A stretch of DNA of 63,984 bases, filler included, from Basidioascus undulatus (taxonomy: Eukaryota), in NCBI GenBank assembly GCA_000826855.1. It is 10 parts of 10 records of this genome, joined end to end, with 100 filler letters (N's around TTAATTAATTAA, not from the genome) between each part and the next. Parts side by side here need not be neighbours in the genome. Positions count along the whole stretch, not along the records: positions 1 to 22,768 come from JTLS01000286.1; positions 22,869 to 25,093 come from JTLS01002865.1; positions 25,194 to 27,417 come from JTLS01002866.1; positions 27,518 to 29,739 come from JTLS01002867.1; positions 29,840 to 32,006 come from JTLS01002868.1; positions 32,107 to 54,872 come from JTLS01000287.1; positions 54,973 to 57,193 come from JTLS01002869.1; positions 57,294 to 59,514 come from JTLS01002870.1; 2 more parts are not named here. One strand, 5' to 3'. The notes under the pieces are model-generated. The model saw only the letters and a list, made by a program, of their open reading frames with translations. It was not told where the DNA came from and did no database searches. Every line of letters starts with the position of its first letter. The stretch's first letter is position 1. The translations under genes and the position numbers were made by a program. Shown one piece after another: positions 3,309 to 58,955 of the stretch.

Positions 3309-4200
3309 ATGTCCAACCCGAACCTGACCCACTCCGTTTTCACGCTCCGGCAGAAGCTTGCTTGGCTGCCGGACCCCTTGTCCTCTCGCTCGAATAGGGC
3401 ACGCACTTCCTAGACCTGCGCGTTGCGGCCGAGGGGCCCAAGAATGGCACAATCGACTGGAGCATGGCTGGTGTACGGCAGATATTGGATGGTTCCACAG
3501 CAGGTGAGTAGGCTGACGCCAAGCACGTCTCTTGAGATGCTTTCATTTCCTTCTGAAGTTCGAGCGCTGGAAACGTCTTCCTTGACTTCTTACAGAGTCT
3601 ACCAAGCTTTAGCTTCCACAGCATCATCAACGCGCGCGCGCTTGCCGAGGGGATCCACCCCGAGCTCCCGTCGTCGCTCATCAACCCCGAAGAGTCCGCG
3701 TCAGACCTGGCAGGAACGACCCAGGATGACGTGACCGTCAGGGACCTGAGGGACCTGCCGAACGGCGACCACTTCCTAGAGGCGGGGCGGATGCCAATGC
3801 CAAAACCGGACTCTGCAACGGACCCGCAGACGTACGTGCTCTTCGAGGAGACGTACCGCAAGCTGTGCGCGCCGGCAGAGTCTCAGTCCTCCTCGAGTCC
3901 GTAGGTGGCGACGGCCCCCGCAAGGCGTACGTGGGGATTATCGACCGCTGGTCGCTCGGGTTGATGGACGACGGGGAGGGCGACAGTACCTCGCGTGGAG
4001 GGACAACCTTGCCGAGAACGATGGTACTTGGACCGAGAAGTACCGCTTTGGCGGTGAGCGCGCCAGGTTTCTCGTCCCGCGCATTCCAGACGACATCCCC
4101 GGGGGCTGGGACGTGGGCGCTCTCGTTCAGCATGGGGAGGGGAAGTGAGTCGTCCGCACGAACCAGACGGTGGCTCGAAGGTGGAAACGGAAGGGTTGAG
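3309..4200 (+). pseudogene. HRI1: HRI1-family pseudogene
   Basis: HRI1-like blocks lie in different frames: KLAWLPDP / LVLSLE*GTHFLDLRV..IDWSMAG / SFHSIINAR..DLPNGDHFLEAGRMP..FEETYRKL / VSVLLES..KAYVGIIDRWSLGLM / YLAWRD..GALVQHGEGK*VVR. In-frame stops at 3395 and 4146, plus several frameshifts. Confidence 0.72.
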
Positions 4201-4601
4201 CGCTGTTATCAATTTCATATTGGCTTGCGGTTCCTTGGCTCGCTGGAAGGTGTCTGTGCTGTTGCTATCTCAACGTTTGGCTTGTATGAACGGGAGTCTG
4301 TTGTGCGGATTGTTGAAACGCTGCTCACTCTGTGCAGCTGTCAACTGCTTGATCTGACATTGACGTCGCTATCTGGCCCGAGTGACACCTTCCCTGCAAC
4401 GTCTCATGGGCGACTAACTACTTGACCGATCGGCGTGGTGAGGATATCTCACAAATTCAAAAGTTACTATAGAAGGAAAGTAAACTGACCAAAGGGAGAA
4501 GGAAAGGGACGACTACACTCAGATCGACTGCTTGTCTTTCTGCCACCACCGCACTTCGCCACGCTTGCGCTTGGCTTCGTATCATCCGCCTCCTGAACGC
4601 C

Positions 4602-6833
4602 ATGATCTCACGCACCCCTAGCCTAGAAGCGGACTCGGACTCCTCAGATGTCCCCGAGCTCATTCACCCGAGTCGTCGTCGCTCGGCTTCCCACTCGCGC
4701 TCTGCGGCCGTCGCCTCCTCGCTCTCCTGCTCGTCCCAGCACGAACGACGCACCCATCGCCTTGAGCGCTCCCCGAGCGCAGAGATCGAAGTTCCTGAGA
4801 TGTATGAAGAGGGGTTGGACTTTGACTTGGACAACGTGCTGGAGGGAAAGTTCAACGGGCGCCGCGAGGCGGACCTCTCGGAAGATGACGACGAAGGGTG
4901 GGTGGACGGCGAAGATGATGAGTTCCTCAAGTTGGAGGGTGAAGAAGACCCCGACAACGAGCGGTGTGTTCAATCTTCCTCCCACCCCTAACTCAGCTCA
5001 ACAACTCCCCGCGCATATATGCAGGCAGCAGCTCATCCTCGCTCTCGAGGGCCTCGCCCTGAGCTTCATCCAGCAACTCGCGCACACGCTCGAGTCCGCG
5101 CCAACGGACGGCGAAAACGACGACGAGCCGGTCGCGGTAGTCATCGAGCTTGTGAACCGCAAGGACGGCGGTGGATGGAGGAGGGTGCGGTACCCCCGTA
5201 AGGGCGATGGTGGAACGCGGGCGCTGGGTCAGGCCGCAGGCATTCGTCGAGGGGGAGGGAAGAGTTGAAACTGATGTATGAGGGGATGGTACACCGTTCA
5301 GGGTGTCTCTTACGGGTCGTCGATATCGTGCATGAGGCTCTCGTGGACGGGATCGTCCTCACAAAGCGGTGCGTTCGCTGCTCTGCTCGACCATTCACAG
5401 CTGTCCTCTGATGCGCCTCCGAGGCCTTGGAACAGGGACATATATTATAGGCAGCCCGAACTTTTTGTTTCGCAGAAGACTGTAGACAATGTGAGCTTCT
5501 TCGGAGCAGACGCAGCCGCCGGAGGGGCTTGACGCGCCTGAACAGATCATCGAGGACCTTGCCGCAACGTTCGGAGTTCGGAGGGCCGCGCTCAACGTGG
5601 TAATATATTATTTCACACCCCACCGCTATCGTATCCACTCAGCGTTGATTGATTGGCCACATGCACAGCGCGCAGCCGCGAAGGGCCTCTTCAGCGGCTC
5701 CGGCCTTCAAATAACGCTCGCGTCGGGAGACGTTCTGCAAGGAAGCGACGCCCAGGTTTGTCTTGTCTTCTCTCGGTCCTCTATCCCGAGGATCTACCCA
5801 GACTGACAGTTGTCACGAGCAGGGTACATCTATCCCGTCTCTCGAAGACGTCGCGCTCATTGAAGTGGTGCGTGCGCTCCAAGGACTTCTGTTTCTCCAG
5901 CCTCGCTCAGCTTTCGTTGCAGGAAGACGACATCGCTTGGGTGCTCGTCATCGAGAAGGAAGCTGTCGCGCAGACGCTTTGGTCGCAGGGGTTTACGTTC
6001 CACGAGACAATCGGCCGGGGAATCGTGCTCACGGTCCGTTCATGCGCACAAGCGCCTTCGCTTTGAACGCGAAGGAGTGCTCACTACTCGGAAATGTCAC
6101 GTAGGGAAAAGGTTACCCAGATGTATCAACACGCGAACTCCTGCGCGCATTAGCCGATGAGCTCCCTCCCGAGTAACGCTTTTCAGCCTCGTCTTCCAGC
6201 CACCCATGGCTTTCCATTTCCCTGCTCACCCAGCATCCACGTCAGTATTCCCTTCCTCGCTCTCGTAGACTGCGACCCGCACGGGCTCGAGATCTTCTCG
6301 ACGTACCAGCGCGGCAGCTCTGGGTCGGGGCATGAAGCCGCTCGGCTGGCGGTGCCCCGTCTGACATGGATCGGGCTGAAAAGCAGCGATTGGGATTCGT
6401 GCGTTCCCAATCCCAAGCTCTTCCTTTGTCTGTGGCCCAGCCGACGCCCTGGTGAAATGGGACAGGCTCGACCTCGACGACGACCAGCTTATCCCGCTCA
6501 CGGTCCTCGACCACAAAAAGGCGACGTCCATGCTCGCGCGCTCCGACGTCGTGGAATCATGGAAGCGCGTCCTTTCTTCTATTTTCTTCTCCATACACTC
6601 CTTTCTTTTTCACCTCCTTTTGCATCTCGCTCAAGCATGACTGACTGGCGAGCACGGAGTCTGTCTTTATCCATCCTAACAGGCGCGAGCTGCAGATCAT
6701 GCTGCACACCAACTCCAAAGCCGAAATCCAGCTCCTTCAGCAACACAACAGCAGCAGCGCTGCCGCGGGTTCGACGAGCGCAGACTTGCTCGTCGACTAC
6801 CTCGTGCGGAAGATCAGTCCTAGATTGGCTTGA
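4602..6833 (+). CDS. SPO11: Meiotic double-strand-break transesterase Spo11 (Topo VIA family)
   Basis: Multi-exon and in frame. Motifs: TKRDIYYRQPELF (catalytic Tyr region), AAKGLF, VLVIEKEAV, GKGYPDVSTR, LVDCDPHGLEI (Toprim DxD), KAEIQ. TGA at 6831-6833. Confidence 0.95.
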
Positions 6834-7681: not shown

Positions 7682-8406
7682 TTAGTCGAGCCGCTCGAGG
7701 TACTCGAGGCGGTTAAGCACGACGTTTTTGGACGTCTCTTCGATCTCCCCCGCCAGGAACACTTCGTCGAGGATCGCGTAGACCTGGATTGAGGGTTAAG
7801 ACGTACGTGAATACGCGGAGAAGCAAAGAACGGGGGAGGGGACAACCGCGAGTCGGTCAATACGTGTTATAAGACTTGAGATAGTGATGGTAGAGTTTAC
7901 CTTGTAGAAGTTGAAGACGAGATCGAGTTCGCAGACGTTGGAGAAGAACGAGTCTGCGCGGTGGGAAGCGGAATTAGATGGCCGAAGCCGAGGCGCCGTA
8001 GGTGGTATTGTGGCATTATGGAAAGCCCGACCGGCCCAACAACATATAAGTGGTTCCATCACTCACCAAGCACCTCCACAAATAGGTGAATAGCCTCCAA
8101 ATACGCCAGCTCGTTATCATTCGCGTCTACGCAGACGCAGAAGAACAGGCCGGCATAGCGGCGATAGACGATCTTGTAGTTGCGGAACTCCACGAAATTG
8201 GACTGATATTTCTGATCCCGCGGTGCAATCAGGCGGTGCACCTCGCCTCGGAGCCGGACCTGTGCGGGGAGAGGATGAGGGGGAAGACGCGAGGGGAGAT
8301 GGGAGAGATGTGGGCGCACCTTCTCCTCGTCGTCAAACGGCACGTACCACTTGGACAGGCGCGTCTTGCCTTGCCGGTTCTGCACGAGGATGAACTTGAT
8401 CGCCAT
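7682..8406 (-). CDS. APS2: AP-2 adaptor complex sigma subunit
   Basis: [21 protein letters not shown]...[12 protein letters not shown]...[64 protein letters not shown]. Confidence 0.96.
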
Positions 8407-11400: not shown

Positions 11401-11415
11401 CCCGCCAGCCAAACG

Positions 11416-13846: not shown

Positions 13847-14860
13847 ATGCAGCTCTCGCGCGTGCTCCTCGCGACTGCCGCCCTCTTCAACTGCTCCGCC
13901 TGCGCTGCCTGCCGCCCTCTTCAACTGCTCCGCCTGCGCTGCCCGGGCCTCTCAGCCGCTCGCGGTGCACAGGAGGCAGGATGCCAACCCGGTCGGTTCG
14001 ATCGTCAAGGACCGCCAGGGTCTCACGAGCACGTCCGGAGACATCCAGCAACACGCAGCGGGGACACCGCTTGGTTTGTCGTCCTCTCCTCTGCGTTCCT
14101 GCTTGCCTCTTCATTCATCACACTAACGAGTTCAGTCTTCCTTCCCCGCCAGAAAACGTCTTCACTCAAGCGCCGGTGCGTGCATCTTCCTGAGCGGCTG
14201 GGCTCGCCCTCCTGAAAGAGCCAATTGATACACTGACGAGTTTCTCATCCCCTCTCCTCAGCAACTGCCAAAGGCCTTACCGACCTCGCCTATTCCCTCG
14301 ATATCGCCACGAACAACATCCAGCCCAGATGCCACCCTCGTACTGGCTACTCTCCAGACATGCGTTCCTGCCTTTTTCTGCTCGCCAGACGCTCGCTCGC
14401 TGTCGGGTTGACCACTGTCCATCTTCAGTACGTCCGCGTTTTGCAGACGTTGTTCTCGACCATCGATGGCAAGTACGGCCTGCTTGCCCAGTTCGGCGAG
14501 CCTTTCGTGGATCCGTCCTGCTCAGGCTCTCCTTCTCCCTGGTCCTCATTTAATCATCCCTCCTGTCTTCCAGGTCCCATCTGCGCCGTCCTTACCAAAC
14601 TCCAGGACTCGATCAACGTGAGCCTCTGATCTCTCGATCGACAAACACTGCTTTTCCTTCAGAGCTGACGCCGCCCTCCGCCTGGAACGCCACACATGCC
14701 GCACCGACTCTGCAGTGTTACGGCCCGGTCCTCATCGGTCTTGTGCCCAAGCGGCGGCGGGAGCGCAGGATGAGAAGTATGAGAAGTCCAAGTTCGATAA
14801 GGCCGTCGCCCGTAACGTGGTTGAGCTTCCAAATCGATATAGATTAAATCCTGAAGCACG
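13847..14860 (+). pseudogene. Secreted UVI-1-like helical protein, frameshifted
   Basis: TATAAA at 13691, signal peptide MQLSRVLLATAALF and a Kex2-like RR-Q site. Later exons read YVRVLQTLFSTIDGKYGLLAQFG / GPICAVLTKLQDSIN / YGPVLIGLVP. A 34-bp tandem duplication (13875-13942) shifts the frame in exon 1. Confidence 0.55.
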
Positions 14861-15852: not shown

Positions 15853-16640
15853 ATGTCGCCGTTGATTCGCCTCCCCACTGACATCTGGGTACGGTCCTCT
15901 TCAAAGCATGCAACTGCTCCGGCTCTGACACCCCTCCGCACTCGGCCTTCCAGCCCGAGATTGCAATCTACCTCTGCCCCAAAGACCTGCGCTAGCTCGC
16001 CGTCGTCAGTTCCCTCACGCGCGAAGCTGCGCAAGCCGTTATCTTCTCGTTAGTCAACGTCGAGGATGTGAGAAATGCGTCCTTTCTCCAGCTCCAACAG
16101 TAGCTCACAAATACGTTGCCACATTCTTAGCTGTCCGAGCTCCACTCGTCCCTTGCTCCAGCCTCTCCTGTACCGATCGCCTGGCGTCTTATATCCGCAA
16201 CGTGCGGATCGTTCTTATGCCATTCGCTTAAGGAGAGCCGACTACTCCTGAGGAGCTGCGCGCGGCGGAGGGATTGAGCTGCACACACTCATCTCGAACG
16301 AGACGCTCAACAAGCAGCTCGGCGACATTATAGGACGGCTGACGGGGTTACAGGAGTTTGAGGTGGGCTTCGCTTCGAATCCATGCTCCGGAAGGGGGTA
16401 TCAGCTACTACCACGCGGAGCCTTGTGGCTACGAAGTTTTCCTGCCCGTTTCACCCTTTAAAGCCGCCTTCAACCGCCTCGGCAGCCTTTCGCGCCTGAC
16501 GAAACTGAAGCTTCATCAAGGTTCCTTCTACTGAGGCGCTCGAGTTGCAGAAGCTAAAGCACTTAAGCCACGCCGTACTTCGGGCCGAGTACAGCTCTTT
16601 CCAATCGCGCTCTGGCTCGTTTCGTTCTGGCGAACAATGT
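15853..16640 (+). pseudogene. F-box protein pseudogene
   Basis: After removing a GTACGG..TTCCAG intron: MSPLIRLPTDIW/PEIAIYLCPKDLR*LAVVSSLTREAAQAVIF, an F-box consensus with an in-frame TAG at 15993. Further stops downstream; the 3' boundary is approximate. Confidence 0.65.
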
Positions 16641-19215: not shown

Positions 19216-21124
19216 TTAGACGCGCGAGCCGTAGACGTCCGCGCGGCCGACGCCAGCCTGCCCCTTGCGGACGTTGGCTGGTGGGGGAGGGGGGAGGAGG
19301 GGTCAGCGTGGGGTGCACGTGTGAGGGAGGGAGATTGGGAGGCGGAGGAGTGGGGAAGGGTGAATGGGGCAAGGGGGGAAGAATTGGAGTAGTTACGCAC
19401 CCTCACCCCACTTCTTGAGGCGGATGGACTCGATGGCGATGAAGCCGGTGGTGTCGGTGGGCTGGAAGCCGCCGAGCTCGTCCATGGACGCGGCCTGCTC
19501 GTCGTAGAGGCCCTCGTCGGATTTGCGGCCCTCAACAACGACGTTGCCCTTGTAGAGCTTGAGCTTGACAACACCGTTGACGGTGCGCTGGGAGGCGGGG
19601 ATCGCGCTCGTAACAAACTCGCGCTCGGGGGAGAAGAAGTAGCCGTTGTAGAGGATGTTGCTGAGCTGGGGGGTGACGAACTGGTCCCGGAGTGCACGGA
19701 CGTTGCGGTCGAGCGTGAGGCCCTCGAGGTCCATGTGCGCGACGCGGAGGATCGTCGCGCCGGGGGACTCGTAGCACCCGCGCGACTTGAGGCCGATAAA
19801 CCGGTTCTCGACAATGTCGATCCGCCCGATGCCGTGCGCGCGCGCGAGCGCGTTCAGCGTCAGGAAGACGTCAACCGCGTCCGTGTGCGACTTGCCCGTG
19901 GAGCCGACGGTCACCTTCGTCGGCAGGCCCTTCGTGAACTCGATCGTGATCCGCTCGGGTGTCTCGGGCGCCTGCTCCGGCGCGGTCGTGAGCTTCCACA
20001 TGTCCGCAGGGGGGGTCGTGTTGGGGTCCTCGAGGATGCCGGCCTCGTAGGAGATGTGGAACAGGTTCTCGTCTGCCCATCCGTCGCCAAGAGGTCAGCA
20101 AGAAGCTGGAGCGAAGAATTGATTGTCACTGGCCACGCACCAGTCGACCACGGCTTGGCAGCGGTCTGAGCGACGGGAATGCCCTTCTCCGCCGCGTAGG
20201 CGAGGAGCGCAGAGCGGCCGGGGAAGCGGTCGTAGAACTCTGCAATCCAGAGAGTGAGGATCCCGTGAGCCCAACGCTCTGAAGCGCCACTCATCAAGCG
20301 AAAACGCACCAGGCAGACGCCACGGAGCGATGACCTTGATGTCGGGCTTGAGGCCGTAGAAGGCGAGCTCGAAGCGGACCTGGTCGTTGCCCTTGCCGGT
20401 GCAGCCGTGGGAGACGAAGCTATGCGAGAGACACTTTGTTCAGAGCTGGCTCCAGGGAGGAACGGGAGCGGAGGGAGCGGAGGGAACAGAGGTGCTTACT
20501 CGCAGCCCTCACGCTCGGCGACAGAGATCATGCCGCGGGCGATGACTGGGCGGGCGAGGGAAGTGCCGAGGAGGTAGACGCCCTCGTAGATGCAGTTGGC
20601 TTGGACGGCGGGGTAGATGAGCTCCTCGACGAACTCGCGGCGGAGGTCCTGGAGCACACAAGCAAACGAACACTGAGTTAGCCCAGGTCTGCTCTGCCAG
20701 CCCACAGCGAAGAGGGACGCACCTCGAGGTAGAACGCCTTGGCGCCGACCTTGAGCGCCTTCTGGCGGGCAGCCTCAAAGTCCTCCTCCTGGCCTGTTTC
20801 CCCACACACCACCGAATGAGCTCTCCAGCCCCAGTCCCCCCCGCTCGTTTCCCGCTTCGGCCCACCCGCCCGAAAAGAAGAGGACACGCACCGACGTCGG
20901 CCATGAAGGCGAGAACCTCGTAGCCCTGGTCGATGAGCCATGCGAGAATGCAGGAGGTGTCTGTGGAGAGAGCAGTGGCGGAGAGGGAGAGAGAGAGGAA
21001 GAGGGAAGGCACGAGTCGTGTGAGTTTTGCAAAAGAGGAAGGAAAAGACACAGGCAGGGGACGGACCGAGACCGCCCGAGTAGGCGAGGAGGACGCGGCC
21101 CTTGGGTGCAGCGGTGGCGGACAT
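19216..21124 (-). CDS. ARG1: Argininosuccinate synthase
   Basis: [56 protein letters not shown]; last exon [20 protein letters not shown]. Confidence 0.98.
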
Positions 21125-21225
21125 GTTATGTCTTTTGTGGGTGGGTGCTGTGAGGGGGAACAGCGAACGTGGGGTGGGGGGTGGTTCTGACTAGCTATCA
21201 TCTGGGGATGGGATGGACGACGCAC

Positions 21226-25270: not shown

Positions 25271-25319
25271 AGCTAATCTTAATGCCTGCCAAAACCTTAT
25301 GATGGCATCTCTCCCATCC

Positions 25320-34949: not shown

Positions 34950-37330
34950 ATCAGTTGAACTTACAACTCTGCGGTTCGCGCCCAGTCCTTCTCTGCGAGC
35001 GCACGCCGCCAGCCGTGCAGCGAGACCTGGCCGGCCCTCGTCCAGCCCAAGCTGGAGGAATACAGCATACTTTGAGAGCTGGCGGGTTGTATTGGGAAGG
35101 ACAGCAGACGTACGTCAACGACAAATCAAGTTTCCCATAGTCGAACTTCGGCGAGACGAACTGCGTGAGGTGCTCGACGATGTCCGCTGCGGCTGCAGTG
35201 CACTTCGCGGCCTGAGTCTGGGAAAGTCTCGGAATGCAAATAGTGAAGGAGAAGGGGAAGCCTTCCCAGTCGCCCATCAGCAAGCTGCAGTGCAGTCTGG
35301 GAACATCCAGGCTCGCACCAGTACAAGATGCTCACTGCTGTGAAGCGCCGAGGCCCGTCATACGGCCACTCCCACTCCTCGACATGCTGAGCCGTCCTGA
35401 TGCGCTCCGGAAGAGATGCCCTAAAGGCCGCGACGAGCTCGTCAAGCCTCGAACTCGCGGCTCGTGCGGATGCGCCACAGACGGGAGGCATCGTCGACGT
35501 CGTCGTCGTCGGGAGGAGCGTCGTGCAGGTGCGTGAACCGAGCTGCAAGCGAGAGAGCTTGCAGAGCCTGATGAACGAGTCCCAGGTGGGAGGGTGCGAG
35601 GTGAAGGCGTCGTCGTCTTGCAGGGACTGGCTTGCAGGTGGCTCGACAAGCGACTGGATTGGCGCAGCGGGAGACGGTGACAGAGACTGCGCTAGAAAGG
35701 TCAGACGTGAAGTTGAAGGGAAACCTCAAGACTACTGGATTTTAATATGAACCGTAGACCCGGGTACCCATAATACCGAAGTGATCTCCACGTCTGCGAG
35801 CAATACGGGCCACCGACAGAGCACGCTGCCAGCACGGCTGCGAGCGAGGTCCATCAGCGATGATCAGGTAACAGTCCGGCTGAAGAGCTAAGCATTCCTC
35901 GTACTCTCAGTTGTACGGAATCCGAATGCAGCGAGCGCCACAGCTTGATCTTGCGCCGAGGTTGGTACGTTGTTTCTGTTCACGGTGCGTGGTAAAGCGC
36001 CCCACCGGGACATGCTTGGGCTCAGGCGTCTCCGACCGACCGCGACCTGCCAGAAGATTAGCGGCGTCCAGTCGATGGTAGCCGTGAGCCACGGTGAGCC
36101 GAAGACCTGTGGGTGAAAATATATGCAGCGCTCCGGTCGTCCTTTGGCTGAGGAAGCGCGTACCAGCCCCGTTGAGAGACTACGCAGTCGCCAACTCGTT
36201 CCGTCCATAGCAGTTGTACTAGATAGAACGATTAGCATCTACCCACAGCATTCAAGCATGTCTTGAGCGCTGACGCACGCAGAGCACGTCCAAGGGCTTC
36301 TTTCCCTTTCGCTGCGCATCGTCCAAAAGCGGGAGAGCTTGAGCATGGAACGTCACCTCGCAGGCTTTGAGAGAGCCGTCCAGAGGGCTCGTGCTACGCA
36401 AGTGTAGATAGCGAGGAGCAGGCAGGGATGCCGGCCATCGGGGTGCTCGAGACGAAGTGCGAGCGAGGCCCGCAGAGTTGGCGGGTGGAAGATGTTGCTC
36501 AGATAGCGCGAGAAGAAGATGTCGATTCTGCTCAAGCTAGAAATCGAGTGGAATAGGAGATTGGGCATCGTACGGGATGAAAGACGCACAAGGACTGCGC
36601 CATATCAGGCGGAACCTCGGGCTGGTACGTTCCAAGCTCGAAAGTGCCGGGATGCGGAGTGAGCGCGCTGAAAGCCCAGAGAAGCGCTGAGCCCTGCAAG
36701 TTACTGTAGGCCCTGTAGTTCTTTAGCACTATAAAACATGCATGCCGCTCCTAAGCAGCGCACTATCTCAAGTCCTCCGACAAGCCGCCCCGATTGAAGC
36801 GAACAGAGACAACGCCCACGAATTTGGATCGTAGAATGGCAGTCCCGAACATTTTAAATCATGAGCACGTCTTCTTTCCTCTTGTTTGATCCAAGTACCT
36901 ACCATCAGCGTCGAGCGCAGGAGGCTCTGCCCACCGTCGATGAACGGAAGAATCAGCGGATTGGCCCACACTTGGGGTCCACGAAGCGTGCTCACGGTCG
37001 TTATCCGTGTCGGCCCCCAGAGTGACTCGTTCAAGCTCCCTTTCCAGCTCGGCTGAAATGGACGAGCAGTTCCAGTCTTCAAGGCCCCAGGTACGGTGGG
37101 AATAGGCTAGTCGCACCGATCTGCCTGAGAAACTGCGTCCGCTTCGTACCCTTCGTGCTTCCCCAAATGCAGACTCTTCCCGCCCTGGTGCATAGACGCA
37201 CGCGGGCTTCGAGCCTTCGCACTTCTGTTGCTTCTGCACGTCAGCCTTTCATAGAGCGTCCCATGAACCGCACGAACCACTAGTCAACGATAATGTTGTC
37301 AATTCTGAACGGCAAGAGGCTGCCTGCCCG
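34950..37330 (-). pseudogene. Zn(II)2Cys6 fungal transcription factor pseudogene
   Basis: Collinear remnants: GQAASCRS/KQQKCEGSKPACVY (zinc cluster with missing Cys), IDIFFSR..LRASLAL..HPCLLLAIY, IFWQV, WDSFIRLCKL, LDELVAAFRASLP, KCTAAAADIVEHL..FDYGKLD. Many stops and frameshifts; boundaries approximate. Confidence 0.65.
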
Positions 37331-40273: not shown

Positions 40274-42718
40274 ATGTCCGCGTACGTACAATGTGGTCAT
40301 ATTGTTTGGCTACCTGTCTACCCGGAGCGCTGGGGCGGTTACGGCAGTTGCGCTGAGACCGGTTCCTTGTCGTTCCAGACCCATCTTTGCACAGGAGGCT
40401 CAGGAGGAGCGAGGGGAGAACGCCCGGTTATCGACGTTCGTAGGGGCCACGGCACTGGCCGACCTGGTGCGTTGTTCTTGTTTTTCTCAGATTACCCGAG
40501 TCAAGTTTGACGCCGGCCCACGCACACCCCGACGCCCACCGTCTTCCGCAGGTCAAGTCGACGCTCGGGCCGAAGGGGATGAACAAGATCCTCCAGTCCG
40601 GGCAGGACGGCTCGATCACGGTCACCAACGACGGCGCGACTATCCTCAAGTCTGTCCCGCTCGACAACCCCGCCGCCAAGATCCTCGTCAACATCTCCAA
40701 GGTCCAGGACGACGAGGTCGGCGACGGCACCACCTCTGTCACCGTCCTCGCGGGCGAGCTTCTGCGCGAGGCCGAGCGCCTCGTCGCGCAGAAGATCCAC
40801 CCGCAGACCATCATTGAGGGGTACCGCATCGCCAGCAAGGCGGCGCTTGCTGCGCTCGAGTCGGCGGCGGTTGACCACGGGTGCGTGTTGAGATTGCCCT
40901 TGGGAAAAGGAGGCAGGCTTTGAAGAGTCAGAGGATGTGGGAGATCGATTCTGACGGGGAGTGATTGCTCGGGCGTTGGTACACAGCTCGGACCCCACCA
41001 TCTTCCGCGAGGACCTCCTCAACATCGCCCGCACCACCCTCTCCTCCAAGGTCCTCGCGCAGGACAAGACCTACTTTGCCAACCTTGCCGTTGATGCCGT
41101 CCTTCGCCTGAAGGTCCGTCTTTTTAGCTGCTGTGTCATTTGAAGCCTTGTCTAACGCAGGCTGGGCCGGGCAGGGGAGCACGAATCTCGAGAACATCCA
41201 GATCATCAAAAAGGTCGGCGGGAAGCTTACGGATTCGTACCTCGACGAGGGTGAGTCGAGATCTACCTTCGCTTCGTGATCGGATCTGACATATAGCGAT
41301 TACAGGCTTCATTCTGGACAAGAAGATCAGCACCAACTGCCCGAAGCGGTTGGAGAAGGCTAAGATCCTCATTGCCAACACTTGTGCGTCTTCTCTTCCC
41401 TCAATCGGGTAGGATGCGACTTGCAAAGCTGAAACGTCGGGATGCAAAAGCCATGGACACGGACAAGATAAAGATCTTCGGCGCGCGGGTCAAGGTGGAC
41501 AGCACGAGCAAGCTGGCAGAGCTTGAGCGGGCAGAGCGGGTTCGTGGATTCCTGTCACCATCTCCTGCATCCGACCGCAGCCTCTGCTGACACAGGCGAC
41601 TTTTTGGCGTGCCCGGCTTATAGGAGAAGATGAAGGCGAAGGTTGCCAAGATCAAGGCGCACGGGATCAACTGCTTTGTCAACCGCCAGCTCGTCTACAA
41701 CTACCCCGAGTCGCTCTTCGCCGAGGCCGGCATTATGTGCATCGAGCACGCCGACTTCGAGGGCGTCGAGCGCCTCGCGCTCGTCACCGGCGGTGAGATC
41801 ACGAGCTCGTTCGAGCGCCCGGACCTCGTCAAGCTCGGGCAGTGCGACACCATCGAGGAGGTCATGATTGGTGAGGACAAGGTGAGTTGTGTCGCAACTT
41901 GCAGGCTGGATTCTCGTCGATCAAGCGAGTCGGAGATAATCGCTGACGGTCGTCTTTCTCTTTTGTAGCTCATCAAGTTCTCGGGCGTTGCGGCCGGCGA
42001 GGCATGCACGGTTGTCCTCCGCGGCGCGACGACGCAGATGATCGACGAGGCCGAGCGCTCGCTGCACGACGCGCTCTCGGTCCTCTCGCAGACGGTCAAG
42101 GAGACGCGCGTCGTCCTCGGCGGTGGCTGCGCCGAGACGCTCATGGCTAAGGCCGTCGATGAGGAGGCGCGCAAGACGGCGGGGAAGAAGGCCCTCGCGG
42201 CGGAGGCGTTCTCTCGGGCGCTGCTGCAGGTGCGTTGGCGCTTTGCTGACTCCCTTTATTCACTGCGTGACTGAATGTGCTTCGGTTGAACAACAGATCC
42301 CGACTACCCTGGCGGACAATGCGGGTTACGATTCGGCGGAGCTGGTGGCGAAGCTGCGGGCGGCGCACTACGAGGGCAAGAGCGACTACGGGTTGGGTGC
42401 GTCGTTGTTATTGTTCTGCCCCATCAGGACCCACCAGGCCAAACTGATCGTATTGTGTCCGACCGACCAGACATGTACCGCGGCGACGTCGCGTCCATGC
42501 GCGAGCTTGGCGTCACGGAGTCGTACAAGCTCAAGCGGCAGGTCGTCACCTCCGCGAGCGAGGCGAGTGAGATGCTCTTGCGGGTGGACACGTGCGTTTC
42601 CTTCTCCCTTCCATCTGAAGCTTGTATTGTGTCTCCTTGCAAGGATGTCTTGTTGACCGGACTCCATGTCGCACACAGGATTCTGCGGGCGGCGCCGCGG
42701 AAGCGGGAAGGGCAATGA
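40274..42718 (+). CDS. CCT2: T-complex protein 1 subunit beta
   Basis: [74 protein letters not shown]. Confidence 0.98.
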
Positions 42719-43291
42719 GCGGGTTTGGAAGAGGATGGGTTGAGGCTGAGAAAGGTCTGGCGATGTAGACGCGATAAGATTAAGGTTATCGCATCTCGAA
42801 GCCGCCATGCCTGCCTTGGATCACTGGAGGATGTCCCAGACAGACCCGAGGGGTGGGCATGTCATAGGGGAAGTCCACATTGCGCTCCTCTGGCTGGGTT
42901 AAGGACTGGATGGGATCATTCAGTTGCCTTCTGGGATACTCTGGAAAAGTGCATCGTTGTATGAAAGACTGCGGAGGGAAGGGGGGGGAGGCGGCACGTC
43001 TGGCGAGGAAGAACCCGCTGCACCCCGGATTTCGTTGCTTGGCTGCTAGAATACTATAGGTCTTTTGAACTTGGTGGAAAAACTGCAAAACCTACCATGC
43101 AGAGTCTCGTTTTTGTCATTTTCGTGCAGCAGGTATCAGTCGAAGTGCTTGCAATTCTGGAGGCAGTGCGCAGCGCCAAACAATCTGCCATGAGAGATGA
43201 CGCGTCGTCCTCACTCGCAGAGAACGCTCTTGCCCATAACCACCACATCGATCCCACTCGCACCACCTTCCTTTGACTCTACTCTCTCAGC

Positions 43292-44354
43292 ATGGTGCTT
43301 GAAGCAACAGTTATTCTGTTCGCGCAATTTCAATACCCGGTGGAGCTTCCTAGGCTCACATTCGTCCGGTTGCCAGCCTCGACAACTCCGAGTTCATGCG
43401 GAACGGTGACCTCCTGCCGACGCGCTTCCTCGCGCAGGCGGACGCTGTCGGTCTGTTGGCGGAGACCAAGACGAGCATGAACCCGGAGAACACCGTCGGA
43501 CTCATGACTATCGCCGGCAAAGGGTGCGTGGCCCAGCAGGCACTACGGTGGGATTTGGCCAAGAAGGCGGAGCGAATGGCTGATCGGTGGGGTTTGGGCG
43601 GTGGCTGCAGGCCGGAGGTGCTCGTAACAGCTACTCAGGATGGTGGGAAGATCTTGTCGTGCCTGCACGAGGTCAAGATCTCCGGGGAGACGGATCTTGT
43701 CCATGGTATCCAGGTTGCTCAGGTGCGTATCGTCCTCTTGGCCCCCTCCGCCTCCGCCACTGACGCGCTCATCCCACACACCCAATCGTATAAGCTCGCA
43801 CTCAAGCATCGGCAAAACAAGAACCAGCGGCAGCGCATCGTTGCGTTCATCGGCTCGCCGCTGAAGGAAGACGAGAAGACGCTCGTGCGCCTCGGCAAGA
43901 AACTCAAGAAGAACAACGTCTCGGTTGACGTCGTCAGCTTCGGCGAGTCGGAGGACAACGAGGACCGCTTGAGCAAGTTCGTGGATGCTGTTGGTGGGGG
44001 AGACAACAAGTGCGTGGTGGTTGCTCTTCTCGACTGGGCTGTGGCACGGCGTGATGTGAAGCTGATGAAGGCTGATGGGCGATGCTTGTCCGGCAAAGCA
44101 GCCACCTCCTCAGCGTCCCCTCTGGCCCTCACATCCTCCTCTCCGATGCCATCATGAACTCGGCTATCCTGCACGGGGAGGGCTTCGGCGCGGCGGAGGG
44201 CGGCGCGGGCGAAGGCGGCGCAGGTGCCGGCCCGAGCCAGTACGAGTTTGGTGTGGACCCGCAGATGGACGTGCGCGACAAGCGCGCGGTCCAGGAGAGG
44301 ATGTGGAGGTGCTGGGGCGGCGTCTTGGGGTGGGCGAGGGCGGCGCAGGTCTGA
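43292..44354 (+). CDS. RPN10: 26S proteasome subunit Rpn10 (vWA domain intact; UIM absent and replaced by an unrelated tail)
   Basis: MVLEATVIL/LDNSEFMRNGD..NPENTVGLMT..LALKHRQNKNQRQRIVAFIGSP..SHLLSVPSGP..YEFGVDPQMD, then VRDKRAVQERMWRCWGGVLGWARAAQV*. Confidence 0.9.
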
Positions 44355-44902
44355 AGGGTATGAGAAGGGGGAGGAGGGAAGGGAGGGGGAATATAACTTA
44401 TGGGACGGTGTGTGGTAGAAGAACGAAGGTGGAATCGAGTTGAAGCGACCATGTCTCACTCGTGTGTGCTTCGTTTCCTTACTCCTTTGGAGAACTATGT
44501 CTACTGGGTCAGAATATAAACAACGCTGTGGGTCACTGTCATTCCAGACTGTCGGCTGCTCGCTGAGTACAGGAGAGTCCGAGTCAGTGCGCTTGAGGTG
44601 GCGGGCCCGGCGGTCGCTTGCCTCGCTCTCTACTGCTTGTTCTTGAAGACTTAGCTTCTCTCCACATTCGTGGGCTGCATTGCATGGATAGCATATCTGA
44701 GTATCGCCATATATGCGACCAGATTGAAATTTGTGGTTATCTTGAGCGCGACTGCAGTTATGGTCACGCTGGGTAGAGAAGACGTTTCATGAGGAGCCCT
44801 CACACCTTTCTCTACCGCTACGTCCTATACCTCCTCAACCTCCCGGTCTTCTCCTTTCCAGCGCAGCGAACCGTCTAATGTCGGCGCCTCTATGTAAAAC
44901 AG

Positions 44903-45636
44903 ATTCGGGAGTGCGCAAATTGTAGGAAGACGGACGTGCGCTTCTTGAAATGTGCATGCAGTGCGTTAAATTGTCCTCGCATTCCGCACCGCTGACCAGT
45001 TATTAACGCTCAAATCCGCAGAAGCTGCTGAATGTTGCGTGCGTCTGTTGCGACCGTTGCATCTGGACGCCGTGCATCCCCTCCAGCTGATTCACCGGTT
45101 GCTGGCCCCCTTTCCAGGACACCCAATGCCAGCGCGCCCACCGGTCCGCACACAAGGCCCACTGCCAGCAGATGCGCCGGAATATGCAGACCAGTCCCAA
45201 ACCGTCGCGCGGGGCGCCGCTCAGCGCGCTCGAGCTGATGAACGAGACCCAGCGGTGGCAGGACATGTTCCGGCCACTCCTGACGAAGGTCGCCATCTGC
45301 GCTCGATCTTGGGAACCCCGAGCCCGCGCGTCGCGCGTGAACGAACGGCTGTGGTTCAGCATCGCGGTCCGCCGACGACCGGACGCGCGCCTTCCGCTCG
45401 AACGCAGGTTCGTCGTCGACACGGAGGGGATCAACATCTTCACAGGCGTGGATTTGGAGCTGGTGAATCCTGAGATGACCGACGTCACGCGGCGCGAGAG
45501 GGAACGAGTTGTGGCATGTGGGGCGGGCGGAGGATTGCGTGCCACAGTGCGACGGTGCGCGGTGGCGGTTTCGCTGGAGCATTGTCGTTCGACAGTCCTG
45601 CCCAGAGGCTACCATCTCACGGCAAAAAATCTATAG
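44903..45636 (+). CDS. MYND-type zinc-finger protein with a degenerate finger (possibly decaying); start codon not located
   Basis: Three exons splice to IRECANCRKTDVRFLKCAC/KAAECC/DTQCQRAHRSAHKAHCQQMRR.., and the frame stays open to 45636. Confidence 0.55.
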
Positions 45637-47436: not shown

Positions 47437-50400
47437 CTACTTCTCCTCGTAATCGGAGTTGCTGCGCGTCGGCGAGAACTCCTCCGGCTGATTGATGAGC
47501 TTGATCGCGGCCGCGATGGCCTCGTCCAGGTCGGAGTGGAACGAGCGGTCGGTTGACAGGAGGAGGAGGAACTTGCTGGGAGCGGAGCCAGAGGGAAGCG
47601 CCTCGATGTCCTGCTCGACGCCCTTGTTCGCGACGTCGCTCGCGTACGGACCGGCAGAGGCGACGGAGAAGAGCTGCTTCGCGATCGCGTCCGCCTTTCC
47701 GAAACCAACACTACGGGGAAAATATGGTATCAGGTCTCTGCGCTCAAGTAAGGCGTGAGGCAAAGAAGAAGACACACGCAACGAGAGCGCGCTTGATCCA
47801 CGGGTCGCGGAGGTTTGCAAAGTGGAACTGTACACGCTCGGGGGCTGCCCAACGGTCGAGCTGATCGCGCACGTCGACGAGGACCTGGGTGGACGTGACA
47901 TCGACGTGGTTCACGCCAGCGAAGTCAAAGATGACGGCCTTGAGCGTGGGGCGGTTGTCGTTAGCGATGTCCTCCGCAGACGCGGGCGTCGGCTGTTCAG
48001 GCGCTCATTCAGCCTTGGCGCTCATATTTCTCAGAGGAATAACCGGCAGTACGTACGTCGTTCCACGGCCTGTCACCGACATAACCACTGACGGGGGCGC
48101 CCTTCTTGGTAATGCGCTTGACCTCCTCGACAACCTGGTCGGTGTAGTGGTTTGCGTTGGGGCTGTAGGAGGAGTATCAGCTCAGGTTCGAGACGGTTAA
48201 ATTCCAGCTTAGATGGACGCACTAGACGAAGGACTCGGTGAAGCGGTAGATGAGGATGCCGGGCGCCGGAGGCGGGACTTCGACAGCAGGGTTGCTGCCG
48301 TCCTCGTGCTGGAGCGGGAGCCAAATGTTGCGTGCCTCCCGGCCATCGACGGTCTGGACGCGGATACGGCCGAGGAACTCGCCATGCGCCTTAGCGATGC
48401 GCCACAGCAGGACCGCAGCAGACACGATGACCGTGCAGCTGGGGAAACGGGACCGGCGGGTGAGTTTCGCTGTATCAAACGCGCGATTTGTAATTTTCAA
48501 CGTACTAGATGCCGATCTCGATGGTGGAGAAGACGATGATGATGACGCCCCCGAAGAAGATGATGGCGTCGAGAGGGCTGACGCGCCAGAAGCCGTACAA
48601 CTGCGCAGGCGGCAGGATGAGGTCGCCAACCTGCAGCAGCACGTCAGCACCTGCACCTGGAACCGAAGGACTAGGTACTTACCGCATGGATGATGACGGC
48701 CGCAAGAGCTGCGTTAGAGATGTAGAAGAAGACGGCAGGGAGAGCGCTGGGTTCATGGCAGTGCTAGATCAGCATGGGCCGGAAGAGGACGGCGTGAAGG
48801 AGCCAGAATGACTAGATGGCGAGCAGGATGACAATTCCGGTGATCACACCGGCGAAAGGCGTACGGACGCCAGCCTTGGACTTGATCGCGGTGCGGCTGA
48901 ACGAGCCAGTCGCGGGGTCTGAAGAAATCATGCGACAGTGAGCACCAGCCGCCAATGCTCCTGCGGGAATGGAAAACGCACAGGCTCCAAAGAAAGGCCC
49001 GAGGAGGTTCGTGATACCGATAGCGATGAGCTCCTGCGACGGATCGATCGTGTAACCGTTAATGCGACCGAAGGACTTGGAGATGGCGATGTGTTCAATG
49101 AGCAGCACAATGACCGAAACCTGCGAGGGAAGGCACGGTCAGCGACCATACGAAGCTCGCTCAACGGGAACATGAAAGACTCACAGGAATGTGGCCAGCG
49201 TATGCGCTGATGATCTCCTTGTCCATGCGCGGGACTCCCATGTGCTTGAAGCCACGGGGGACGTCCTTGATGACAGAGAAAATCGGCTCGGGCTGGCCGT
49301 GCTTCTCGCCGCGGTGGTGGCGGTTGACGAGCCACGAGATGAGCTGTATCGTGGTCTCGTGAGCAATGGTCCCAAGAGGAAACGGTAAAAAAAAAAAGTA
49401 AACGCACGGTGTAGAGAAGGATGACAAACACGGTGCGGAGCGTGTTGGCGAAGAAGAAGATACGCTGGCGGTTGGGGTAGCGCTTGGCTAGAGTGTTGCA
49501 GCCCCACCGAACGAAGTAGAGGAGGAAGAGTGCAGTGAGGCCGACAGCAGCGTTGATGTCGCTCCATCCGACTATAAACACGGTCAGCTTAATACTCCCA
49601 GAAAGAGGAAATGACATGAAACGCACGGTACTTGAGGGTGTTAATGATAACCTTGTACGTCGCCCCGCGGGTGCTGAAGCCCTGGCGCTTGTTGCCAAGC
49701 AGGGTGCCGACCTGGCCAGCGGCGATGTTGATCGCAGAACCGGTCATGAACGACGCGATGGCGGGGAGAGAAATGAAGTCGACAATCCATCCGAGGCGGG
49801 CCAGCCCGAAAGCCGTGACGATGCCGCCACAAATGACTGCACCAACGACATTAGGAAAGTCCCCGACTACGAGCAAACGGAAACTTACCTGCTACGGAAG
49901 AAGCGATTTCCTCCCTGGTGGCTTCCGGAAACTTGTCATGGACTTGCACAACGATTTCTCCGACAAGAGTCGACAAAACTGCGACGGGGCCGATGGTGAT
50001 ACTGTGTAGAGAAGAATATGATTAGACGGGTGGAGAGGACCGCAGAAGGCAACTAGGCAGTTGACGCACTCCTTGGACGTAGCGAAGAACCAGTAGATGA
50101 TGACGCCGACGAAAGACGAGTAGAGGCCGAACTCGGCGGGGAGGTTCGCGAGTTTAGAATAAGCCATGCCTGAGAATGCAAGACAGTAAGTACGGTCGAG
50201 ACGAAGCATACCAATGTAGACCCGAAAACGCACCCTGCGGGACGACGACCGCTCCAACCGTGATCCCGGCGACCAAGTCTCCAATCAACCATTGCTTGTT
50301 GTAGCGGAAGATCCATTGCAGGCTGAAATATGGAATGTTAGTTTGTATTGGGTCAAGCAAATTGCGATGGGCACGAACAATGGGAAAAGGTTGTAGACGT

Positions 50401-50733
50401 AGGTCACAACGCCGCGACGCGTCGGCCAGACACTTTTCCACCACCCGACCTGTACGAGTAGTGGGCTGTATCGTGAGACAATTCCAATTCGTGGTGCTGA
50501 GCTGTCAGGTGCGTACGAAAGTCGGCTCCGGCTCGATGTACGGTTCGGCGACCTGGTGAACCCAAATGAAGTCCAGTCACGGTACTCGATACCATTCAAG
50601 CATTGAAATCATGGTTCACAGTGGATGCAATGCTCTCGCTACGGGTAACGCGGTCCCCCTCGTCCTCCGGAAGATGGTGCTCAATGCCGAGCGCGTGCCC
50701 GACCTGCTGCCCGACGCGATCCCAGTTGACCAT
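47437..50733 (-). CDS. SulP/SLC26 sulfate permease with a STAS domain
   Basis: WLIGDLVAGITVGAVVVPQ/GMAYSKLANLPAEFGLYSSFVG, LLIEHIAISKSFGRING, PATGSFSRTAIKSKAGVRTP, GILIYRFTES, IFDFAGVNHVDVTST. Confidence 0.95.
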
Positions 50734-57293: not shown

Positions 57294-58062
57294 GGAGACA
57301 GCAGGGGCGGGCGCGGGCGCGGGCGCCAGGATAGATGGTGGTGGTGGGATGAAAGACTCCGGCTCGAGCGGCGGAGTAGGTGAGGGTGTGGATATCCGCG
57401 GTGGGGGTGCTGATTCTGCATCGAGCCGGGTTGATCGGACGGAAGCTAAGCCACGCGGGAAGGAAGCAAGCAAGCGAGAAGACCACTCACCGTCCGGCAC
57501 ATGGAATCCGATGAGCCTCGGACTCGACCCGCCCATGCAGCGCCGGTACGTGCGCACGACCTCGTGCAAGAAGAAGACCTGCTCGCCTGCGCGGTCGGTC
57601 GTCCAGCGGTAGGTCTTGCCGAGGGTGATGTTGAAGCATGTCGGCTGCTCGGTGAACAGCAGTGTGAGCGTCGGGGGAGGGAGTGATGAGGGGGATTCGG
57701 ATATACGCACAGTGAGGACTTCTAGTGCACGCAGGTCGTGCAAGTTCCATGACTTTCCGATGGAGAAAGTACCGTTGCTGTTGCGCTTGGACTTGTGGAT
57801 CCTCGCCCTCCCGCCCGCCTTCGCTGTGTCCCCCCGGCTCTCACTCCTCAGCCGCCTCGCCTTCCATCCTGCTGATTCCATATAGCTACTCACACGCCAG
57901 AAGGATATATCGCGGCTTGGGCTCAGCAGGCGCGCCCGACGAGGACACCTGGTCCTCGAGCACCTTGATGTGGGTGATGTACGTCTCGTCCCCGCTCGCC
58001 GGGAAGCACGACGCGATGATCGCCTGTGACGTCGCTCCGTCGGGAGGCGTAGGTGTCGCCAT
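57294..58062 (-). CDS. SEC3: Exocyst subunit Sec3, N-terminal PIP2-binding PH domain; partial
   Basis: ETYITHIKVLED..KPRYILLA/..RIHKSKRNSNGTFSIGKSWNLHDLRALE/..FNITLGKTYRWTT. Confidence 0.9.
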
Positions 58063-58659
58063 TGTCGACCAATAACGCCCGTAAAAGAAGAGAAGGGCGG
58101 GATGGGCTAAGAGTCGCTGCGATGGTGAGCGAAGGGTGAGCCATAGGGAGCAGCCAGGGCGCGGCGGTGACGCGCCGCCGGCGCCGCACTCCGCGGACGT
58201 GCCGGACGTCGACTGTGATACGAGTTTCAATGGCGAGGATGCATCGGCCAACAACACTCAAACTGACGCCTTAGGTGTCGCTTAGGAGTAAAAACATCAT
58301 GCTCCCATTTGGAATGCATTCATTGAAGGTCGATCATGTATGACACCCAAAGCTTCAGGAGGCTCGACTGCGCTCTGGATGCTGAACTTCAATGAACTTC
58401 CAATCCAGCTTGCTGTAAGCAGGTACTCTTGCCTTACTGTAACATGCGCAACAGCCACGGGTGTTACAGTGGACACTCAAAGCTTCAGCATTCGATTGCA
58501 ACTCTACAGGCATGCTGCCATTCATCCATTGAGGGCACCCAGCTCACCTACCGGACATGTTGGGCGAGCCTCGCACGCAAGCATGGCAGCGACACGCTGT
58601 GAGAGCTTCCCACTGTCGGGACGGGGAGGGACGTTTGTGTACTGGGGCAAGGAGAGGAT

Positions 58660-58955
58660 TCGGGGAGGGGGGAAGAACGGCTCTAGCGGTGGAGCAGTGT
58701 GGGCGTAAGAATCCACGATGGGGAATCGAATCGGGATCAAGTCGAGTGAACGGTACAGTAGATGAGCAAAGCTCAGCGTGTCGGGCTTTCTCGCGGGTAG
58801 AGCAAGAGAGAACCTGCACGGATTCAGGTCTTCTCTCCAGATTCTGTTGAAGCACCTGTACGTGCGCACAACCTCACGCAGAAGGTCTGCTCACCCCCGC
58901 GGTCTTTCGTCCACCGGTTCATCTTGCCTAGCGTATTGTTGAAGTACGTCGGCTG
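58660..58955 (-). pseudogene. Diverged partial duplicate of SEC3 exons 3-4
   Basis: QPTYFNNTLGKMNRWTKDRGGEQTF versus SEC3 QPTCFNITLGKTYRWTTDRAGEQVF. Nucleotide similarity continues through GAGGTTGTGCGCACGTAC and CCACCGCTAGAGCCG; frameshifted. Confidence 0.8.

Follow-up and report, generated by a model that had tools for sequence, protein, structure and literature searches.

Fungal genome erosion is commonly linked to parasitism or to transposon blooms. In a window of 63,984 nt of Basidioascus undulatus (10 contigs joined by spacers, from a genome assembly of 32 Mb in 2,992 contigs), decayed accessory genes lie between intact housekeeping genes. This raises the questions whether the decay is real, whether it reaches beyond the window, and whether it reflects the host dependence that the original prediction proposed.

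Decayed and intact genes in the window

All seven predicted loci, six intron-bearing relics with stops or frameshifts and a degenerate MYND gene, were located, on four contigs of the window (1, 3, 6 and 8; Table 1). Among their proposed names, HRI1-like, Na/Ca exchanger and SEC3 copy stood. The F-box label is weakly supported (Pfam F-box E=0.042, below the cut-off), and the UVI-1, Zn2Cys6 and MYND labels are putative. The six control genes spliced cleanly, as had been claimed, and their models were without lesions.

Table 1. Coordinates of relics, control genes and the assembly misjoin in the window
Feature	Position	Strand	Remarks
Histone H4	1715..2292	-	control without lesions
HRI1-like unitary pseudogene (provisional)	3309..4148	+	1 intron (3504-3595), 4 frameshifts, 1 stop
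SPO11	4602..6833	+	control; open frame of 485-489 aa once spliced
APS2	7682..8406	-	control without lesions
Broken secreted-protein gene ('UVI-1-like' label putative)	13847..14840 (3' end approximate)	+	signal-peptide-like start
F-box-like relic (label weakly supported)	15853..16530 (3' end approximate)	+	TAG at 15993, more stops after
ARG1	19396..21125	-	control without lesions
Na/Ca-exchanger-family (PF01699) unitary pseudogene (provisional)	25574..26221	-	3 frameshifts
Small-family relic ('Zn2Cys6' label putative)	34961..36000 (5' end approximate)	-	degenerate motif
CCT2	40274..42718	+	control; 11 introns from spliced X3 contigs; 524-aa open frame
RPN10, 5' part, intact	43292..44258	+	truncation apparently from misjoin alone
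Assembly misjoin	44255..44261	.	RPN10 5' part joined to unrelated locus, which makes contig 6 chimeric
Degenerate MYND-like gene (motif by eye)	44890..45633	+	C/H pattern spread over three exons
SulP transporter	47437..50733	-	control without lesions; paralog on C125
Parent SEC3, 5' part	57294..58062	-	frame open, cut by contig end
Partial intron-bearing local SEC3 duplicate, decayed	58619..58955	-	75% over 278 aligned nt

The HRI1-like relic was identical to the intact homolog P0004 at 100 of 225 positions and to P0007 at 112 of 248 (both Pfam PF16815). The four frameshifts were called against P0004 and the stop, a TAG at 3395, against P0007. We searched the genome itself by protein query, the family search being silent even for controls, and found no second HRI1-like copy, as all seven candidates were the relic itself. 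The Na/Ca exchanger relic was identical to the intact homolog P0009 (PF01699) at 103 of 202 positions, and its frame shifts close to 26092, 25866 and 25613; one more call, at about 25979, lies within an intron that is read through in P0009. The own-genome search found no other exchanger copy (three matches to itself, one match at E=0.55). Judged from their lesions relative to intact homologs and from these searches, the two genes are provisionally unitary pseudogenes. The absence of another copy is provisional because the assembly is fragmented, with at least one misjoin, and because the search can overlook paralogs: it missed a known paralog on C530 and returned one GH5 match although stretch L070 holds a GH5-like model.

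The SEC3 copy aligned to the adjoining SEC3 across exon, intron and exon, with a 4-nt gap. Its retained introns and intact parent are those of a duplicated (non-processed) pseudogene. The relic at 13847, with the putative UVI-1-like label, has its frame shifted by a 34-nt tandem duplication at 13875/13909; Pfam and sequence searches with it gave no similarity to UVI-1 proteins. Atlas searches with this piece and with the HRI1 exon gave no usable match. The 'Zn2Cys6' relic has two paralogs, one on C530 and one in stretch L072, both lesion-bearing; it had no Pfam match, and no six-cysteine cluster was found upstream of the two paralogs. Single exons of the MYND-like gene gave no zf-MYND Pfam match. 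Exon-wise Pfam searches of 239 stop-free ORFs from relic and intergenic regions returned the domain of the true SEC3 and a handful of matches below threshold, and were too insensitive to recover any relic. A further candidate gene was seen at 33850-34400.

Reliability of the lesions

Contigs from two DNA runs (X1 and X2) had no other letters and no gaps relative to the window over 32131-44224 and 44255-52000, a letter-for-letter match at contig level that covers two relics. Over 3001-12900, which includes the HRI1-like relic, the share of sampled words held was 1.00 and 0.99 in the contigs of X1 and X2. Both runs are possibly the source of the assembly itself, so that these matches are a check on the assembly rather than on independent strains. 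A third run (X3), which yields spliced contigs, covered none of the Zn-like relic and little of the MYND-like gene, a gap in cover that is not evidential. Past the misjoin, the RPN10 frame carries on in all three runs; RPN10 was thereby ruled out as a broken core gene.

That the lesions are artefacts of sequencing or assembly is very unlikely. The assembly is fragmented, has one proven misjoin in the window and holds a contig with bacterial 16S, and two of the lesion models, an SNF2-like gene and a pinin gene, each hang on a single predicted in-frame TAG. Against error stand the agreement of two runs across two relics and, as the original prediction had argued, the sparing of all six control genes. 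Moreover, the relics carry several lesions per gene, with multi-base indels and one large internal deletion. It is scarcely credible that recoding, RNA editing or atypical splicing keeps the loci functional. TAG accounts for several of the in-frame stops, and Fusarium graminearum is described as restoring premature stops by editing (PMC12311193). However, the lesions are mostly frameshifts, duplications and deletions, and the stops are a mixture of TAG, TAA and TGA at varied residues.

Pseudogene load across the genome

We sampled 80 stretches (765 kb) with a self-trained splice model and manual curation, which was not blind. Among 52 lesion-bearing models of >=200 nt, 27 were judged credible, 9 false and 16 uncertain by hand. 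The credible models represent 26 loci in 26 of the 80 stretches, in line with the expectation that decay reaches beyond the window. With the 215 models of >=240 nt that had no lesion as the reference, they amount to a floor of ~12 relics per 100 lesion-free models, or, by extrapolation, ~1,100 relics in the genome (34 per Mb x 32 Mb). Pfam matched eight of these loci, and for one (PRP43) an alignment to its intact parent was made; all 26 were judged on the assembled sequence.

No gene models arose by chance from 300 kb of simulated non-coding DNA. Of genes decayed by 2-10% the model recovered 63-74%, and recovery fell to 42% at 15% decay and to 9% at 20%, which implies an undercount; under the same rule it caught one of the seven window relics, and in strict mode it made four of them look intact. 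In core genes (XRN1, THO2-like, RPL38) it made false calls where the tails are of low complexity. The model was seeded with the CCT2 introns, and as an independent check it recovered all three introns of the gene at 37783-38292.

The affected genes were mainly accessory, as proposed, but they were not confined to regulatory, secreted and transport functions. Relics outside the window include a GH18-LysM gene and beta-carbonic anhydrases. No second copy was found for either of the two relics tested that have an intact homolog outside the genome (HRI1-like and Na/Ca exchanger), whereas many relics, among them SEC3, PRP43 and beta-carbonic anhydrase, have intact parents or paralogs.

Coding DNA made up 36% of the sampled stretches. 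In contrast, three metagenome loci that fitted the model were 63-65% coding, with lesions in 1 of 15 models, a very small comparator in which two of the three loci are apparently one organism. These three came from 20 long loci tried among 80 metagenome CCT2 loci; no close relative was found among the 80, the best CCT2 exon match being 86%. Class-level placement failed: the best five of 4,212 candidates for an eIF3m exon were Agaricomycetes (55-59%), and the HRI1-like matches were Microbotryomycetes (45-51%).

PRP43, Argonaute and the mode of decay

The second PRP43 matched its intact parent at 467 of 607 amino acids, with 141 of 246 four-fold sites differing and two frameshifts, and has kept its introns, as in a duplicated pseudogene. 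On this sequence comparison it is an ancient paralog, recently broken and newly reported here. The Argonaute match on contig C2459 (about 408 codons) carries one stop and two frameshifts. Both Piwi candidates fall in this same broken gene, in a search that may miss copies; provisionally, the sole Argonaute match found is thus a relic, also newly reported here. A PDB search with an exon of this relic gave chance matches alone.

No transposon Pfam match was obtained among the 239 ORFs from relic and intergenic regions of the window, in line with the original observation. In the genome, however, 21 RVT_1 matches were found on 17 contigs, including one reverse transcriptase frame of 1,509 aa. The assembly is repeat-poor: blastn among the sample, the window and two additional loci gave 14 cross-hits. 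A search with 39.5 kb of the window brought up no repeated transposon debris; other copies, among the best five of six candidates each, were those of H4, SulP, CCT and the Zn-family, and one 62-nt match. In three parent/copy pairs, C>T changes at CpG versus elsewhere were 10/66 vs 12/115, 4/54 vs 8/134 and 40/403 vs 73/731. RIP or methyl-CpG-driven decay was rejected, as these pairs show no strong CpG excess.

Nutrient pathways

A shrunken plant-cell-wall enzyme set is a mark of host-dependent genome reduction. AA9 gave 25 matches on 16 contigs, and all six examined were intact. An insensitive search for other cell-wall enzymes gave no GH7 match (with an uninformative control), one GH5 match and one weak GH28 model. 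In the ~3 kb covered of C2645 and of C1223, the models of nitrate and nitrite reductase were free of lesions, as were those of sulfite reductase and sulfite oxidase on C2026 and C1099 (parts seen). The model of THI4 (thiamine thiazole synthase) on C1445 was complete and lesion-free, and ARG1, TRP1 and a HIS4-like gene were intact.

Discussion

The hemiascomycete yeasts that have been surveyed are mostly free-living. In the parts of the survey consulted, their pseudogenes amount to 0.7-3.6% of CDS and are mostly subtelomeric (PMC2876123). As here, they are non-processed relics of duplicated and single-copy genes with a bias to environment-related and unknown functions, but the load in B. undulatus is dispersed and has a floor of ~12 per 100, by different methods (PMC2876123). 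The report on F. graminearum counts 436 pseudogenes against about 17,000 loci, together with 18 cases of loss of function, compared with an extrapolated floor of ~1,100 here; it likewise describes relics that homology can detect in non-coding DNA, some of them unitary, without RIP as the cause (PMC12311193). Cryptococcus deuterogattii is a basidiomycete with established RNAi loss, in which, according to the portions seen, 210 orthogroups are missing, 119 genes are shortened and full-length transposons are gone (PMC4778953, PMC8022950). Argonaute was lost or broken in both fungi alongside transcription factor, F-box, SET-domain and enzyme genes, but here the Argonaute relic alone is shown and the long reverse transcriptase frame persists (PMC4778953, PMC8022950). 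Cladosporium fulvum and Dothistroma septosporum, as far as the source was available, also have broken secreted, CAZyme and metabolic genes that record a past lifestyle; they are plant pathogens, one of them repeat-rich, unlike the repeat-poor genome studied here (PMC3510045).

Two biological alternatives can be weighed against this background. Erosion after a move to host dependence (as a symbiont, lichenicolous or mycoparasitic), perhaps too recent for core pathways to be lost, seems quite improbable. It would fit the secreted, transport and regulatory genes and the GH18-LysM gene among the relics, the missing GH7 match, and the finding, in the part of the report seen, that lifestyle and host track pseudogenisation in two Dothideomycete pathogens (PMC3510045). 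Yet the obligate biotroph Pneumocystis, while it too lost dispensable functions, lost nitrate, nitrite and sulfite reductases and thiazole synthase, and the sections consulted term thiamine loss a hallmark of biotrophy (PMC4159005). All of these genes are lesion-free here in the parts seen, as is sulfite oxidase, and the AA9 family is large and, where examined, intact. Furthermore, at 32 Mb the genome has not shrunk, and several relics, such as the SEC3 copy at 75% identity, are old. The predicted host dependence thus found no support, and a bias towards environment-related and unknown genes is also reported for free-living yeasts (PMC2876123). Ordinary birth-and-death of genes is a stronger contender, although we consider it rather unlikely. 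All 30-Mb intron-rich basidiomycetes would then carry such relics, uncounted because gene finders bridge the lesions with invented introns, as our own model did in strict mode. Many relics come from high-turnover families (F-box, MYND, P450, transcription factors) or have intact parents, and we found no basidiomycete benchmark in the literature; the available benchmarks are ascomycetes surveyed by homology methods. Birth-and-death sits less well with the single-copy losses, the broken sole Argonaute match and the recent breakage of an ancient PRP43 paralog, or with the metagenome loci, few as they are. If other basidiomycetes equal this load under the same method, the finding is ordinary.

On balance, we think that the relics are true non-processed pseudogenes and that their genome-wide elevated load reflects relaxed selection in a metabolically self-sufficient fungus, probably a saprotroph. 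The decay has the look of drift in such a fungus, not of a move towards parasitism. Three sources contribute to the load: outright loss of single-copy accessory genes (HRI1-like, Na/Ca exchanger and probably Argonaute), recent breakage of old paralogs that had long worked (the second PRP43, extra carbonic anhydrases), and partial duplication nearby that probably never gave a working gene (SEC3, an ABC-transporter tail). Decay proceeds by ordinary stops and small indels, without a RIP-like signature. We infer that selection on weakly useful genes was relaxed and that dead DNA is deleted slowly. The likeliest drivers would be a small effective population size, as under clonality or inbreeding, or a niche that has narrowed, rather than host feeding, and the loss of RNA silencing would probably be a casualty of the process rather than its cause.

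If this reading is true, a genome that has few repeats and whose nutrient pathways are complete would exceed the dead-gene numbers of published surveys of fungi at least several-fold. Relaxed selection would then be separable from host dependence, which would allow a direct test of drift combined with a weak deletion bias. Gene counts, for this genome as for similar ones, may also be off where gene finders bridge relics with false introns. The broken Argonaute is a candidate independent loss of RNAi, and genes that decayed with it could flag silencing components, as in Cryptococcus.

A bolder version, which we hold to be doubtful, is a phylogenetically isolated basidiomycete, complete in its metabolism, that accumulates pseudogenes in the style of bacterial endosymbionts, but without a host and with few transposons. 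Silencing (Argonaute, perhaps with Clr2, an SNF2-type remodeller and the second PRP43) would be lost concurrently, and a fifth or more of the loci would be dead. Such a genome would show erosion by drift caught midway in a eukaryote, and its intron-bearing relics, in their thousands, would preserve the gene set of the ancestor, including members of the lost silencing network.

Decayed genes in the window

All seven loci named as relics in the original prediction were found in the window. The HRI1-like relic, with one intron, four frameshifts and one stop, was identical to intact Pfam HRI1 homologs at 100/225 and 112/248 residues in a splice- and frameshift-aware alignment. The Na/Ca exchanger relic, with three true frameshifts, matched a PF01699 protein at 103/202 residues. 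A search for intact paralogs had been proposed; intact-protein queries of the whole assembly for these two genes returned only the relics, plus one match at E = 0.55. The SEC3 piece is an exon-intron-exon duplicate, 75% identical, ~0.6 kb upstream of its parent. A 34-nt duplication shifts the frame of the secreted-protein relic, and the F-box relic has stops in frame. The 'Zn2Cys6' relic belongs to a small family, of which both other members seen also carry lesions.

The labels HRI1, exchanger and SEC3 were borne out. The F-box match to Pfam stayed below threshold, label searches gave no confirming match for UVI-1, the Zn2Cys6 label derives solely from a degenerate motif, and the MYND label from a motif recognised by eye. 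The six control genes (H4, SPO11, APS2, ARG1, CCT2, SulP) all give open frames, as predicted.

Features located in the window (plain numbers), in contigs (C) or in fetched stretches (L) of the assembly
Feature	Position	Strand	Observation
HRI1-like relic	3309-4148		
tRNA-like sequence	25194-25271	-	Start of contig 3; by eye
Exchanger relic	26221-25574	-	Contig 3
Protein-like frame	33850-34400	+	Single-copy; possibly a further relic
Protein-like frame	36255-36536	-	As preceding; the two lie upstream of/beside the Zn-like relic
Intact 88-aa gene	37783-38292	-	Three coding introns, one upstream intron (X3 spliced contig)
Misjoin	44255-44261		Contig 6; cuts RPN10
Secreted-protein model	L003:1449-2647 (C125)		Four frameshifts; adjoins SulP paralog
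SNF2/FUN30-like model	L042:1779		One in-frame TAG; recent loss or error
Pinin model	L085:8609		One in-frame TAG; recent loss or error
Clr2 fragment	L058:6599-7345		One frameshift
Second PRP43/DHX15	L060:5077-8815 (C2564)		Two frameshifts
Argonaute relic	C2459:2688-4543 (L204:780-2635)	+	Sole Argonaute/Piwi match found in the assembly
Reverse-transcriptase match	C413:2529-3011		Within 1,509-aa open frame; retroelement possibly intact
SSU rRNA match	C2990:14323-15365 (L007)		Low-scoring, in fragments; possibly a decayed rDNA copy
Bacterial 16S rRNA	C952 (L006)		Presumably gammaproteobacterial; contaminant or associated bacterium
Nitrite-reductase match	C1223:10579-10818	+	
Nitrite-reductase match	C1223:35107-35346	-	Score equals preceding; inverted duplication or assembly artefact
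Low-CpG stretch	L022 (C315)		CpG observed/expected 0.69, lowest of 80 stretches; internal repeats; possibly methylated repeat DNA

Assembly and authenticity of the lesions

The assembly comprises 32.1 Mb in 2,992 contigs, with ~59% GC and many introns. No close relative of this basidiomycete was found in the collections searched. The top matches of an eIF3m exon were Agaricomycetes at 55-59% (best 5 of 4,212 candidates), the homologs of the HRI1-like relic were Microbotryomycetes at 45-51%, and the best of 80 metagenome loci for CCT2 was 86% identical over one conserved exon.

Structural errors exist in the assembly, which favours the view that the lesions are errors too. Comparison with contigs of the sequencing runs revealed the misjoin in contig 6. 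Past the junction, DNA run X1 and run X3 carry the next conserved residues of RPN10, and a contig of DNA run X2 likewise extends beyond; this 3' continuation is absent from the assembly. Hence, RPN10 is intact and its truncation reflects the misjoin. However, X1 and X2 contigs matched 32131-44224 and 44255-52000 with zero other letters and zero gaps, letter for letter across the Zn-like and MYND relics. In 3001-12900, X1 and X2 contained 1.00 and 0.99 of sampled words. The suggested check of lesions by reads thus supported the Zn-like and MYND relics at contig level. Since X1 and X2 may be the source of the assembly, this match excludes errors introduced during assembly at these loci, but says nothing on whether the lesions are peculiar to the strain. 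We regard error as a very unlikely explanation.

Relic load across the genome

Beyond the window, we sampled 80 stretches at even spacing, 764,625 bp in total. They were poor in repeats (14 blastn cross-hits), and RVT_1 gave 21 matches on 17 contigs of the assembly. Genes were modelled with a self-trained splice HMM tolerating stops and frameshifts, which recovered 3/3 unseeded introns shown by spliced contigs and produced 0 models on 300 kb of simulated non-coding DNA. By this HMM, the sample was 36% coding and 14.5% intron.

Among models of at least 240 nt, 215 were lesion-free and 51 had an internal lesion. Unblinded hand curation, on assembly sequence alone, sorted 52 lesion models of at least 200 nt into three groups: 27 were credible, representing 26 loci spread over 26 of the 80 stretches, 16 were uncertain and 9 were false, most of the latter arising from low-complexity tails of core genes or from core-gene ends extended too far. 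Among the credible relics, Pfam identified P450, GST, GH18-LysM, copper amine oxidase, MYND, Clr2 and DUF6699; others we take to be carbonic anhydrase, epimerase, F-box/LRR and cupin genes. Relic density was 34 per Mb, or ~1,100 extrapolated genome-wide and 12 for every 100 lesion-free models. These are lower bounds, because simulated sensitivity was 63-74% when decay was 2-10%, falling to 42% at 15% decay and to 9% at 20%, and the sampling rule caught only 1/7 of the window relics.

Origins of the relics

The relics are real, dispersed over the genome and of three origins: single-copy losses, local partial duplicates (within L015, L021, L036, L083, L091 and other stretches, and SEC3) and old paralogs. 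The second PRP43/DHX15 shares 467/607 aa with a lesion-free gene on C2738 (L105). The pair differs by 0.185, 0.122 and 0.47 at the three codon positions, with 141/246 four-fold sites changed. This pattern, set against two frameshifts, points to long purifying selection followed by recent loss; judged from its sequence, the gene is an ancient paralog, near-saturated at synonymous sites. Four beta-carbonic anhydrase loci were seen: an intact one, two bearing lesions and a fourth that runs off the end of its contig. Three parent/copy pairs showed no strong excess of CpG-biased C>T, so RIP-like decay is not indicated as a source.

Lifestyle and causes of decay

The original prediction attributed the relics to erosion in a host-dependent fungus. 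Dispersed relics were confirmed, whereas host dependence failed direct tests: in the parts seen, no lesion interrupts the models of THI4, of the nitrate and nitrite reductases, or of sulfite reductase and oxidase. In contrast, these thiamine, nitrogen and sulfur genes are reported lost in Pneumocystis; Schizosaccharomyces shares the losses affecting nitrogen and sulfur, which are thus not exclusive to parasites (PMC4159005). ARG1, TRP1 and HIS4-like genes are intact. AA9 gave 25 matches on 16 contigs, and 6/6 examined were complete, with a signal-like start and N-terminal His. GH7 was not found in the assembly and GH28 gave one weak model; this argues against a simple saprotroph, though negatives of this search are unreliable. 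That host dependence drives the decay is improbable, though a recent or facultative host association is conceivable.

We somewhat favour the view that selection has relaxed and that dead DNA is deleted slowly, under drift or in a niche that has narrowed. The main rival, that this load is normal for basidiomycetes of this kind and merely uncounted, seems unlikely yet carries real weight. Literature searches found no basidiomycete benchmark of pseudogene rates. By other methods, eight yeasts have pseudogenes amounting to 0.7-3.6% of their CDS (PMC2876123), against ~12 per 100 lesion-free models here, and F. graminearum has 436 for ~17,000 loci (PMC12311193). Recoding of the relic loci has a negligible chance of being correct. 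Neither pseudogenisation nor RNAi loss is a new kind of change; what would set this genome apart, pending a same-method comparison, is the extent of decay with neither a host nor a transposon bloom.

Possible loss of silencing genes

A Piwi search of the assembly scored two candidates, both within one gene. This Argonaute relic (~408 codons, ten introns) is interrupted by a TAA in frame within its first exon and by two frameshifts, and its N-terminal part passes straight into PIWI. It is presumably short of normal length, with the PAZ/MID region missing. As the relic was detected despite its ten introns, an intact Argonaute would probably have been found if present, making this locus a candidate RNAi loss. 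C. deuterogattii and U. maydis are known to have lost RNAi together with other genes (PMC4778953, PMC8022950). The fragment of the silencing factor Clr2 may belong with the Argonaute loss.
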